This document shows, in pieces, positions 35,322-51,105 of a DNA stretch of 64,000 bases (position 1 is the first letter of the stretch; each line of letters opens with the position of its first letter). The notes below the pieces were generated by a model, which worked only from the letters and a program-made list of their open reading frames with translations, did no database searches and was not told the origin of the DNA. Source of the stretch: Eledone cirrhosa (lineage: Eukaryota); assembly GCA_964016885.1 (NCBI GenBank), contig OZ024740.1, positions 146,816,001 through 146,880,000 of the forward strand, read 5' to 3'. The position numbers and the translations under genes are program-made.

Positions 35322-35362
35322 ATATTTGACAAGATTAACATATTAATCGAAACCGGTAATGT
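35322..35362 (+). ncRNA. Hammerhead ribozyme, U3-A8 core variant (independent family)
   Basis: ATAT-TTGACAA-GATTAA-CATA-TTAATC-GAA-ACCGGT-A-ATGT. Confidence 0.7.
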
Positions 35363-35591
35363 ATGATAGAATTTAGATCCAGTTAATTTAATAATTATAA
35401 AAATATTCATTTTGTCGGATTAAAAAAAAAATCTTTAAATATATTCTTGTGCTTTTCCAATTTTCCAATTTTACTTTTTACCCATCCATACATGCCTAGA
35501 TGCATATATACATACATACATACATACATACATACATACATACATACATACATACATACATACATACATACATACATACATACATACATAC

Positions 35592-36577
35592 AATTTTCAA
35601 CAAACATCAAAATGAAATTTGGTGAGTCCAAGTGTGCATATTTGGCAGTAAATCGTGGAAGAAAAAAATATCATTAGGATAGCCACTGATCTAGAGGAGA
35701 GATATGGAATAAAGCCTGATATAAATCTCTCACCCAGAGAAATCGGAAGGTCCTATTCAATGTTCAAACAAGATGAAAAAATTGACCAATTTACAGAAAA
35801 AGTTGTGCATGGATACTTGAGACGTAAAACACAGACCATAGAGGGGATAAACCACTCAAAAAGCCTGGCATGGAGTTCCGACAAGTTTATGACATCACAC
35901 CTTGAGGGATATCTCTATGCAACACAGGAACAAGAACTCCCTACCAAATATCTGCTGCACAAAAGAGGAGGGCCAGCAGCTGACAATAAATGCAGGCTAT
36001 GTAAAACAAAGATCGAAGATGTATGCCACATTGTTGCCAGCTGCGAAAGAATGTCATCTCGCTACTACCTCCCCACGAGACACGATGGGATAGCTAGAAC
36101 CATCTGGAACGCACTTCGGAAAACAAAATTAAAAACAAACGAGGAAGAATATATTGAGACAGATGGCACTAAGGAATACTGGTGGAACCTGAAAATAAAA
36201 ACTGTCACCAAATTAAAGCACAACCGGTCTGATATTTTTGTTTGGAACCACACATTGAAAACGTGTTCTGTTGTGAAGATCAGCTGCCCACTTGATGTAA
36301 ACGTTGTCAGAAAAATACAGGAGAAGGAGGACATGTACGGACCATTGATGAGGAGTTTACAAATCCAGTATCCAAGATACACTTTTAGCTTCATACCCAT
36401 CATTATTGGAGCTACGGGCTATATACCAACCCGCTTGGACCAATATAGCTGCGATAGCTGGCACTTTCAAAATTAGCAAAACATTCTTGCGATTCAAGGG
36501 ATGACAATTTCTTTTCTTTTACAACCTTGCCACCAGGAAGGTGGCCGGTCAAAAATATACTCGAAATTAAGAGAAAG
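35592..36577 (+). mobile_element. R4/Dong-like non-LTR retrotransposon remnant (CCHC Zn knuckle and restriction-like endonuclease) in (CATA)n
   Basis: MKFGESKC (RT end), QEQELPTK, CRLC..HIVASC, RHD, HNRSDI, PIIIGATG; (TACA)n on both sides. Confidence 0.82.
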
Positions 36578-36861
36578 ACATACATACATACATACATGCA
36601 TACATACATACATAATACATGCATGCATACATACATACATACATACATACATACATACATACATAATACATACATACATGCTTACATACATACATACATG
36701 CATGCATACATACATGCATGCATACATACATACATGCATGCATACATGCATACATTCATACATACATACATACATACATACATACATACATGCATACATG
36801 CATACATGCATACATGCATACATAATACATGCATACATGCATAGATACAGTCATACATAAT

Positions 36862-37050
36862 TGTTTCTACTTTTGGCACAAGGCCAGCAATTATCCAGTA
36901 CATTACTGGTACTTTATTTTATCGACTCCGTAAGGATGAAAGGCAAAGTTAACCTCGACGGGATTTGAACTCAAACCGTAAAGGGACGTAACTATGCTAG
37001 AAAGCATAGCGTCCGACCCTCTCCCGATACTGCCAATTCGCCGCCCTTAT
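36862..37050 (-). mobile_element. Full-length SINE family A
   Basis: 18-bp TSD GATACAGTCATACATAAT at 36844 and 37051. Confidence 0.9.
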
Positions 37051-37370
37051 GATACAGTCATACATAATACATACATACATGCATACATACATACATGCAT
37101 ACATACATACATACATACATACATACATACATACATACATAAACACAGTCATACATAATACATACATATGTACATTTATATACATAAAAATATTTATAAA
37201 AGTAATGGTTTCTGATTTAGGCACAAGACTAACAATTTTTGGGGTAGGGAAAGTCGATTAAATCGACCCTATATTTATAAATATAACACACACACACACA
37301 CACACACACACACACACACACACACACACACACACACACACACACACACACACACACACACACACACACA

Positions 37371-47332: not shown

Positions 47333-49110
47333 TATCTATATCCATGAAGCTCTCCCTCACTACACACACATACACACGTACATACACACGCACACCCATT
47401 TAAACTTTCACACACGAACATAGATGTTCTAATGTTTTCAATGATTTCCACTAGTTATAATGCTAATCTGCAATACAGCTGATAGTATGTGAAATATATG
47501 AATTATACAAAATGTTCTGCTGTGGGCCATAGAAAAGTAGCTTACGGGTCGCATGTTTGAGACCCTTGGTTTATGCTAATTATTTTATATCAATTACAAC
47601 TGATTTTCTGCATGTTAATCACAAGTTTTTGCTATGTATATATATATATATATATATATATATATATATATATATATATATATATATATGATAATAATGG
47701 AGCTCTTAAAGCGATGAAATGCCGAGGACGGTTGGAGGGTCACTGATGAAGGACTCACTTTTTCATATATATATATATATATAATATAAGATCGAAAGAT
47801 GGTTAAAAGAGTTCCATGTATTTTATTATGCGCATTTCAAAAACAAATATCATCATGAGATGACATTTGCGTTTTCGTCAGATAAAATAGGGAGACATGA
47901 TATGAAGGTTAAAAAAAACTTCCTACGCACACACACACACACACATATATATATATATATATGTAATAAACAAGAAAGATGGTTTCATTTGTACATCCTT
48001 ATTTATTTTGTTATACGTATTTCAAAGACGTTGTTGTATAACAACTGCCCTACGCGTTCTCTGAAGAGGACGCGTAGGGCAGTTGTTATACAACATATGT
48101 TGTTAAAGGCATATGTAAAATCGATTAGTGGTCAGTTCTTCAGTTTAAAGTCCCTAGGGAGAATGATGCGCCAAAGTGAAAACATATATGTATACATATA
48201 TACACATGTACATGTACACATACACACACTCCCACACACACACATATATATATATATATATACATATATATATATGTATATATATATATATATATATATA
48301 TATATATATACATACATATATATATATATATATATATATATATATATATATATATATATATATATATATATAAATATATATATATATATATATATATATA
48401 TATATATATATATATATATATATATGAAAAATATGGGTGAGAAGAATACTGCTGGTTCACATGGATAACATGTTATAAAATGAGTCCCTCATCAGTGATT
48501 TACCAAACGATCATGGGTATTTCATCGCATATATATATATATATATATATATATATATATATATATATATATATATATATTGAGTGAGTGTGAAAGACCA
48601 AAGGTCATTATTGAAAGCCTCTGGATGTGTATATTGCAGAAGGTACTTTATATTTGTTATTGGAGAAGGTAACAACGATCACTTGCATACTCTACTGTAA
48701 ATAACAGTATACTATACACTGACAATTATTTAAAAATTCAGTTATAACATTCTGTATTAACATTTAGTATTACTATATGCTGCCAGTAATATGTATAGTA
48801 TATATACACTATAATTAGTGGGGGGAAAATATACATTTTTTCCCACAAAAATTTGATTGCACTGTTTTGTTTTCACTTATGTATTTTTTGGAAATGTAAT
48901 TTATTTATTATAAAAATTAAATGATAGCATTGTATATATGGGTGGCAACCAATATTTTTAGCCACAGTCAGCCATTGTATATATATATATATACATACAC
49001 ACGTATATATACACACACGTCCATCAACTATATTCAAAACGCGCGCGCGCACACACAATATATATATATATTTTCTCACAGAAAAACCACAGACCCTCCA
49101 TCTCAACTCA

Positions 49111-49148
49111 CCTTTTGAAAAGCAGAAGAACTGCGAAACCGGTAAAGG
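49111..49148 (+). ncRNA. Hammerhead ribozyme, U3-A8 variant
   Basis: Identical to 44091-44128. Confidence 0.7.
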
Positions 49149-50100
49149 AACCAAATAAATATATATATTTAAAAAAAAAAAAAAAAAATAAGACTTCAGT
49201 TGCATTTTCGATTTCATCTCTTTTTCTTTATACTTTCACTCGTGTAGGACACCTCGGTTATTTTTCATTTTGTAAAAAAAAACCTCACTTTCTAATATAT
49301 ATATATATATATATATATATATGTACATGTGTATATATACATGTGTATATATTTGTATATGTACATGTGTATATGTACATATGTACATGTGTATATACAT
49401 GTGTATATATATATATATATATATATATATATATACAGTATATGTATATATCAGTAAGAGTCAACGGTCATCCAAAAATGTGTAAATATGTATATACGCA
49501 TGTACATATGTATATGTATACATGTGTATGTATATGCGCGGGGGGATAGAAATAGTCGGGCTGGATACCCGATCGTGCGGTTAAACCACTGGGAGTGAAG
49601 GACTCCTAGCCTTTGTCTGGGCATTCTTCTAGGAGAAGGCAATTCAGGAAACTGGGATAACTCCGATATAAAACCTACGGCTCAGTAGTTACCGATGATG
49701 TTGATCTTTTCTTCTTTTAGGGTTATAGCTACTGTCGCCCAGAGAGTGGGATTGGCTCAGTGCATAGTCTACACACACACACACACACACAGATACATAT
49801 GTATATATATATATATATATATATATATATATATATATATATATATATATATGTATATATATGTATATATATATATATATACCCACTCTACTACCCTAAG
49901 TATTGAGTACTTTGGTGCGTTATGGTCCACCTGGTTCCTTACCACATTTCCTTTGTTATATATATATATATATATATATATATATATATATATGTATGTA
50001 TGTATGTATGTATAGTTCAATATGACAAACCAACAAACGCAAGAGTCAATGGTACATAGTGTTATTAGCTTCACGCTTGGTGAGAAGGAGGGGGGTTGTT

Positions 50101-50134
50101 AACGACGTTTCGGACAAAAGTCCTTCATCAGGAG
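50101..50134 (-). ncRNA. Minimal hammerhead motif at the end of a probable PLE 3' UTR (~50015-50800)
   Basis: CTGATGA-A-GGAC-TTTT-GTCC-GAA-ACGT-C; stem I is weak. Confidence 0.55.
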
Positions 50135-51067
50135 AGTGGGGAAGGAATTCCGCGAGGGAGTGAGGGGGGAGTTAGCGGGAAAAACATGAAAAGACGGGAA
50201 AAATAGAAATGATAAATATAAAATGTGAAATCAAAATAGAATTAATCTGAATATAATTTAAATGAATGAATTAAAAAAAAAAAACAGAGTATTAAAAAAT
50301 CAGAGGGGTGTATGGGTCCGGGAAGGCAAGAGTTTGGTGGTCTGTAATGGGTGGGTGGAGATAGAGGGTGAGAGGAGCAAGAAAAATGGAGTCCGAGTGA
50401 GGATGGCGGAAGGTAAGGTGTATATGTGTGTGTATGCGTGCATATAAGTGTGAGAGTCTGGGAGGAAGAGAGTGTATGTGATTGTGTGTTTTGAAAAATC
50501 ATTCTGGTTTGGAGTGGTGTGTATGTCTGTGCGAGTATAGTCCCTGTATGGGTGTAGGTGTGTGTGTGGATGGAAAGGGTCGTCGGGTGAGGTGAGATGA
50601 GATCGTGTCAAATCCGGAGGCGGTGTGGGGCGGAGCGTGGGTGTATGTGCAGATGTGCACATGTGTGTGTGTGTGTGTGTGTGTGTTTGTGTGGTTAAGA
50701 GAGGGGGACGCGTGTATATCTGTAGGTGATGGGGGTTCGTGTGAAATGTGTAGTTACGTGTGTGCGAAAATGGTGCAAGTGTCTCTGTGTGTCTAAGTTT
50801 CTGAATATATATATATGTATAATAATATATTATATTACATTATATATATATATTTGTGTGTGTGTGTGTGTGTGTGTGTGTGTGTGTGTGTGTGTATCTA
50901 TCTATCTATATATATATATATATATATATATATATATATATATATATATATATATATATATATATATATATATAAGAAAATTAGATTTTTTTTATAACAC
51001 GGGTGAAAGTATAAGGAAAAGAAATCGAAAATGCAACTGAAATCTTTTTAAGAATATTCATTTATTT

Positions 51068-51105
51068 CCTTTACCGGTTTCACAATTCTAATGTTTTTCA
51101 AAAGT
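51068..51105 (-). ncRNA. Hammerhead U3-A8 variant, diverged relative
   Basis: CTT-TTGAAAA-ACA-TTAGAAT-TGT-GAA-ACCGGT-A-AAG; stem II basal pair covaries (G-C to A-U). Confidence 0.65.

Follow-up and report, generated by a model that had tools for sequence, protein, structure and literature searches.

Six hammerhead ribozyme motifs were analysed in a 64,000-nucleotide stretch of the Eledone cirrhosa genome (assembly GCA_964016885.1, contig OZ024740.1, positions 146,816,001 to 146,880,000 of the forward strand; hereafter the window). Judged by their sequence, all six are minimal hammerhead motifs of type I, in which helix III is palindromic and a U3-A8 pair replaces C3-G8 in the core. They are truncated leftovers of the pseudo-long terminal repeats (pLTRs) of related Penelope-like elements (PLEs), and we consider it likely that the pLTRs of these elements carry U3-A8 minimal hammerheads capable of weak, dimeric self-cleavage, probably aided by protein. 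In the proposed mechanism, the motifs of the parent elements would cut their own RNA weakly after the GUA triplet, cleavage would take place in dimers joined through the ACCGGT palindrome, and the protein of the element would probably assist. The U3-A8 core would have arisen at the base of the protein clade and been retained by selection on the RNA fold, the flanks and helices turning over in the meantime. U3-A8 in PLE hammerheads was already published in 2014 (PMC4209133), and the present finding is a large new instance of that variant.

All six TTGANAA motifs reported in the initial annotation of the window were confirmed, with core starts at +10989, +35326, -44019, +44095, +49115 and -51101. 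The plus-strand positions it had given turned out to be the starts of the 5' strand of helix I, and two others, 43986 and 51068, the far ends of minus-strand motifs, the strand of which had not been stated. The loci around genome-wide matches were grouped into families by flank similarity; five of the window sites belong to family A, and site 35322 belongs to a second family, D. The motifs are the following (window positions):

10985..11022, plus strand: family A hammerhead motif, U3-A8, a decayed copy with a broken helix III palindrome; predicted cut after 11018.
35322..35362, plus strand: family D hammerhead motif, U3-A8, with a 6-bp helix II; predicted cut after 35358.
43986..44023, minus strand: family A hammerhead motif, inverted arm; predicted cut after 43990.
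44091..44128, plus strand: family A hammerhead motif, sense arm; predicted cut after 44124.
49111..49148, plus strand: family A hammerhead motif; predicted cut after 49144.
51068..51105, minus strand: older family A hammerhead motif with a 3-bp helix II; predicted cut after 51072.

The core nucleotides U4, G5, A6 and A9 and G12, A13 and A14 were present in order around helix II at all six sites, positions 3 and 8 were Watson-Crick paired as U3-A8, and each motif contained the GUA triplet. Helix II differed in sequence yet was paired throughout, as GCAG/CTGC at four sites, ACA/TGT at 51101 and GATTAA/TTAATC at 35326. Helix III was ACCGGT at five sites and ACAGGT at 10989, where the palindrome was lost; the A15.1-U16.1 pair, a position 17 other than G (H17) and the palindromic helix III were together present at five of the six sites, the exception being this motif at 10985. 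Helix I has four pairs at each of five sites; at 51101, three pairs are followed by a mismatch and two more pairs.

A strict pattern matched the window six times and gave no match in 20 block-wise dinucleotide shuffles, and a stricter structure scan passed four of the six motifs, with 10989 and 51101 failing. Rfam returned no hammerhead match at E<=10 for 49090-49160 or 35300-35385 and no hammerhead among the matches listed for the window (150 of 224); its output otherwise was microRNA-like hairpin noise over the window and one weak MALAT1 match. Because Rfam found no hammerhead at the two sites tested, standard searches appear to miss U3-A8 motifs, as had been predicted. A similar string in another family, E (the inverted repeat ends at window 5925-6370), gave 8,635 genome matches, with C3-A8 in 98 of the first 100. 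Family E was considered as a family-level mismatched hammerhead and rejected, because it forms no stable helix II and no helix I, its helix III is non-palindromic in 28 of 32 copies, and its motif is antisense to the nearby GIY-YIG endonuclease (EN) frame. That such a string can reach this number without being a hammerhead, together with the AT-rich genome and the lack of an Rfam hammerhead match, would be in keeping with chance look-alikes in AT-rich repeat DNA that were multiplied by transposition. We regard this as extremely unlikely, given the absence of matches in the shuffles, the covariation of the helices, the constant position and strand of the motif relative to the EN in six families, and the finding that sister families carry C3-G8 hammerheads at the corresponding place.

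The six sites represent five insertions of two families, since five of them are family A and a single insertion accounts for both 44019(-) and 44095(+), its arms differing at 1 of 143 positions. The 51101 copy belongs to an older family A subfamily that is about 71-74% identical. The insertions, some compared with the reverse transcriptase (RT)-EN element at locus L245, are:

10536..11096, plus strand: 5'-truncated family A PLE remnant (3' untranslated region/pLTR) in a (TA)n array, ~91% identical to the 3' region of L245.
35130..35470, plus strand: old family D pLTR remnant with approximate boundaries; relatives are 72-85% identical (45 matches among 40 scored of 543 candidates), with an EN upstream in 4 of 30 loci.
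43914..44265, both strands: single family A insertion in (TA)n, in which an inverted, 5'-truncated copy (43914-44056) lies head to head with a sense copy (44057-44265) that has a longer tail.
49080..49294, plus strand: family A pLTR remnant with a tail, ending in (TA)n and similar to the L245 3' region.
50997..51301, minus strand: older family A pLTR remnant, ~71% identical to L245, with a 5' boundary possibly further out.

A search of the window copies with PLE queries found no PLE open reading frame (ORF), and the copies are, from their sequence, most likely inert. None of the six sites showed a tandem array. A reading of the copies as non-LTR retrozymes or a satellite was rejected, as they are solitary or inverted, tied to RT-EN frames and free of tandem arrays.

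The parent elements were characterised from loci across the genome. A GIY-YIG EN was found 0.4-1.4 kb upstream of the motif, on the same strand, in families A, B, C, D, H and I (in D as EN fragments in 4 of 30 loci). Pfam detected RT (PF00078) and GIY-YIG (PF01541) in one frame in L130 (family A) and L125, and L245 contained a 938-aa open frame and a 3' region matching all five family A window sites. The organisation of an EN-containing (EN+) PLE, with RT, and GIY-YIG at the C terminus, upstream of a pLTR, was thus found. Tandem or inverted pLTRs were present at L125/L126, L128 and L130, and the inverted layout recurs at window 43914-44265. Family A has two alternative 3' ends, ~60 nt apart in contigs; among 83 copies, 38 had the full tail and 23 the short end. 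These layouts, the insertion into (TA)n and the alternative 3' ends fit the description of PLEs in PMC8557442. A C-x4-C-x2-C linker lies between RT and EN in families A, B, I and H. This linker, of which the Neptune form is reported as CX2-5CxxC and as shared with Nematis (PMC8557442), points to the Neptune/Nematis type; the comparison, made by motif and layout, does not tell Neptune from Nematis. A Naiad reading was rejected because the EN is C-terminal. Repeated motifs were also observed upstream of the family A hammerhead at window 51227-51416 and 10600-10860; we take them to resemble E2F sites and E-boxes, and they possibly constitute an internal pLTR promoter.

To count the core states, the 3.0-Gb genome was searched with a pattern consisting of the core, any base being allowed at position 3 and a purine required at position 8, followed by GAAACCGGTA (same helix III, A17); this and the other genome figures are pattern matches, not copy numbers. 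The pattern gave 21,464 matches (186 for the reversed-pattern control), including 22 with C3-G8 (control 9), 145 with U3-G8 (control 22) and 196 with C3-A8 (control 18). The other 21,101 matches were U3-A8 plus some with a purine at position 3, U3 being present in 29 of the first 30 loci. Single-mismatch cores, which would have refuted the initial proposal had they been as frequent as the compensated core, were rare, at 341 of the 21,464 matches, and the proposal passed this test. We infer that the 0.7-0.9% of mismatches per site is what post-insertion mutation would produce in copies a few percent diverged; copy counts report the state of the founder element, not selection on individual copies. 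In families F and G, 98 of the first 100 of 363 matches were U3-A8. Most families had A at position 17, H had C, and part of family C had U; 2,990 matches lacked A17, the first 100 of them comprising 77 C, 16 U and 7 G, the G copies being scattered through A17-type families. Hammerheads that combine C3-G8 with a related, longer helix III were about as common (16,482 matches to a mixed pattern, the first 100 being nearly all C3-G8).

The view that the motifs belong to two unrelated families was not upheld: A and D both lie downstream of homologous GIY-YIG ENs, within one U3-A8 clade. In the thumb-EN region, A was 50% identical to the best-preserved D copy and 30-35% identical to three more decayed D copies, and 52-56% identical to B, H and I; for J and K, which have C3-G8, the identity was 41-47%. 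A tree built by maximum likelihood from 17 rows and 633 columns (a 73-aa row was dropped, and the C and D rows were short and read through with X) separated the C3-G8 families J, K and P from all U3-A8 rows (ultrafast bootstrap 95; FastTree 0.85). In K, many loci tie the ORF firmly to the hammerhead; in J the association comes from a single locus, and in P it is uncertain. The C3-G8 hammerheads occupy the same place in these sister families. Since the A and D proteins are homologous and fall in one clade, the shared U3-A8 core mainly reflects inheritance rather than two independent double changes.

Conservation of the fold was examined in eight natural copies, each from a different U3-A8 family; because these families are kin, the P values are only a guide. 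Helix II formed 30 of 32 pairs against a mean of 15.9 with permuted partners (P=2e-4), and helix I formed 23 of 32 against 15.5 (P=3e-4). Position 7 varied among the U3-A8 families (A, U or C). The covarying helices, the free position 7 and the not-G position 17 match the predictions of the hammerhead rules. Both helices have four pairs in the commonest young family A form (27 of 74 copies), against three in the older 51101 copy. As a dimer, young family A is predicted to combine helix II with intermolecular helices III and I, at -22.5 kcal/mol versus -7.5 kcal/mol for the monomer. Natural U3-A8 covariation has been reported, with activity in vitro (PMC3088659), and a PLE hammerhead that cleaves only with its own protein has been described (PMC11167929). 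Measurable cleavage of family A, as a dimer or with protein, is predicted with modest confidence. At the base of helix II, U-U or U-C was seen in the U3-A8 families B and G (e.g., L222 and L138) and in the C3-G8 family K (L248); U10.1-U11.1 is a tolerated mismatch according to PMC3088659.

A number of results weigh against a single origin of a U3-A8 core that was retained for cleavage. One is a small, old sub-lineage with G8:

L139, L290, L055, L292: small old G8 sub-lineage with an ACCGGT helix III; G8 in 5 of 5 copies, grouping with family F.

The five distinct copies (three C3, one U3 and one A3) are 68-78% identical to the U3-A8 family F. They possibly represent a reversion or a retained ancestral core; they weaken a single origin and hint at a second paired 3-8 switch. 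More than one switch occurred or may have occurred, the A and D flanks lack detectable DNA similarity and form separate clusters, and PLEs of Schistosoma mansoni likewise have U3-A8 (PMC4209133), all of which would accord with the initial proposal that U3-A8 arose independently in unrelated families through convergent selection on catalysis. The A and D ENs are homologous, however, all U3-A8 families with an ORF fall in one clade, ACCGGT is common to the U3-A8 families, and the five G8 copies are decayed, four of them having come from searches that required G8. We therefore consider such convergence very unlikely. A drift path to U3-A8 through U-G is also possible, since C3>U and G8>A both go towards AT in a window of 32% GC.

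Other counterpoints concern cleavage itself. Helix I is limited to 1-2 contiguous pairs in copies of B, C and H, and the F copy examined has none. Pairing of U3 with A17 can lengthen helix I, as seen in the predicted family A folds, and by analogy with the published C3-G17 trap (PMC3884650), this pairing may slow cleavage. PLE minimal hammerheads are reported to be weakly active even as dimers (PMC4209133), and hammerhead mutants were without effect on PLE insertion in vitro (PMC11167929). When a different hammerhead was scanned for pairwise mutations, the core was rescued by the G3-C8 swap alone, the remaining double mutants being low (PMC9901934), so tolerance of U3-A8 would be context-dependent. 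Family H (L344-L350), which has U3-A8 with C17 and accounts for most of the 2,990 non-A17 matches, is the best candidate for clear activity, because C17 avoids the possible U3-A17 trap.

The remaining counterpoint comes from family I, which shares the U3-A8 core and has a helix II of 5 bp and an intact palindrome, with C in place of A13 (GCAA) in 27 of the 28 rows covering the site. A13 belongs to the stated hammerhead core consensus (PMC7151607). The C13 core gave 12,442 genome matches (control 58), with near-identical young copies; the commonest form showed 99.5% nearest-neighbour identity (13 of 27 copies). Family I groups with B as its sister (bootstrap 100), and its motifs have upstream open frames of 330-533 aa. 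Between old and young subfamilies, 46-97 of about 225 columns in the flanks are different, and their common motifs differ by one loop base; counts inside the motif are biased for the old copies, which were picked by exact motif, and flank divergence alone was used. The loci are:

L262 (G000:C4:147983000-147992999), L266, L282, L252 and L293-L302, outside the window: family I loci with U3-A8, C13 and long open frames upstream.

No natural A13C hammerhead surfaced among the titles and abstract openings of the papers that literature searches listed, and Lunse 2017, supplementary file 1 of PMC4209133 or the supplements of PMC9901934 could contain one. Either the C13 core works or family I multiplies without ribozyme catalysis. 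Position 13 usually makes an A13-C17 contact; it is doubtful that the three-change core (U3, A8 and C13, with A17) still cleaves, perhaps with C13-A17 replacing that contact. If it does, family I would provide a natural hammerhead core that we have not found described; if it does not, a PLE would have amplified ten-thousand-fold with a dead ribozyme while still keeping the fold.

Family I also bears on the earlier claim of selection on catalysis. The part of the claim that concerns structure held, as the fold is conserved; catalysis itself we infer, a sister family having fixed the A13 change and yet reached 12,442 matches. The fold may have been conserved for a non-catalytic job, such as dimerisation or binding of the PLE protein, in a U3-A8 clade that lost or nearly lost cleavage. 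C13 in all but one of the family I rows, with helix II and the palindrome intact, and the possible U3-A17 trap would be explained in this way; in another PLE, cleavage is reported to be dispensable for insertion in vitro, with no reads ending at the cut site (PMC11167929), and Naiads are reported to spread without canonical hammerheads (PMC8557442). Across families, however, the 3-8 pair, the free position 7 and the not-G position 17 obey catalytic rules, and a mismatched 3-8 pair occurred in no family found with a sense-strand hammerhead, F and G included. A purely structural role is thus, in our assessment, unlikely, and weak, probably protein-aided cleavage in dimers is preferred.

The closest known system is that of the Cercyon-related PLEs of S. 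mansoni, in which U3-A8 minimal hammerheads were reported with about 1,300 hits (Cervera & de la Pena 2014, PMC4209133). The motifs here resemble them in the U3-A8 pair, type I topology, short helix I and pLTR location, and also in occurring mostly as solitary copies or inverted close pairs, in many sequence families and with predicted dimer action. In two U3-A8 rows of the supplement to that paper, A9 is followed by an additional base and the palindromic insert is two bases long, whereas here families A, C and D have no extra base, the insert is the four-base CCGG, ~24,000 GAAA-type matches were found, position 17 is mostly A, and a sister family has C13. PLE hammerheads of Drosophila virilis Penelope, rotifers, shrimps and mosquitoes likewise lie in pLTRs and depend on a second copy because of their short palindromic helix III; the available text of the source describes them as helix variants and does not mention a 3-8 change (PMC4209133). 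The elements are also like the Neptune and Nematis EN+ PLEs (Craig et al. 2021, PMC8557442) in having RT followed by a C-terminal GIY-YIG and a C-x4-C-x2-C linker, and in their 5' truncation, inverted 5' copy, optional tail and microsatellite targets; the tail is ~60 nt here versus the 30-40 nt reported for those elements. The Poseidon element PAc similarly has a PLE pLTR hammerhead, the cleavage of which requires the 3-8 pair; unlike the motifs here, it has a C3-G8 core, was tested in vitro and belongs to a different PLE clade (PMC11167929).

In this genome, CUGANGA descriptors and Rfam would overlook motif matches by the tens of thousands. A single PLE clade provides a natural series of C3-G8 outgroups, U3-A8 cores with A17, C17 or U17, motifs in which helix II begins with U-U, and a C13 family, and the series bears on whether PLE hammerheads are required for transposition or merely ride along.

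Other repeats were also observed in the window. Fragments of other RT-bearing retroelements (zf-RVT, RVT_1) lie at 35652-36476(+), 38422-38865(-), 34070-34489(-) and 27053-27445(-), none of which matched the PLE queries. An inverted repeat of ~1.9 kb per arm (209-2153 and 3872-5821, 91-98% identity) encloses two open frames on the minus strand (2004-4026, ~340 aa each) for which Pfam gave no match, and hammerhead-like cores without helix I occur at 318(-) and 5712(+). Two C3-G8 hammerhead-like motifs were found at 50131(-) and 47881(-), one of them minimal, with an extra A after A9 and no evident helix I, and the other with a long helix II and an 8-bp helix I. At 59011(-) and 60492(-), in nested inverted repeats spanning 58807-61085, there are canonical C3-G8 hammerhead motifs in which helix III is a longer palindrome and position 17 is C.

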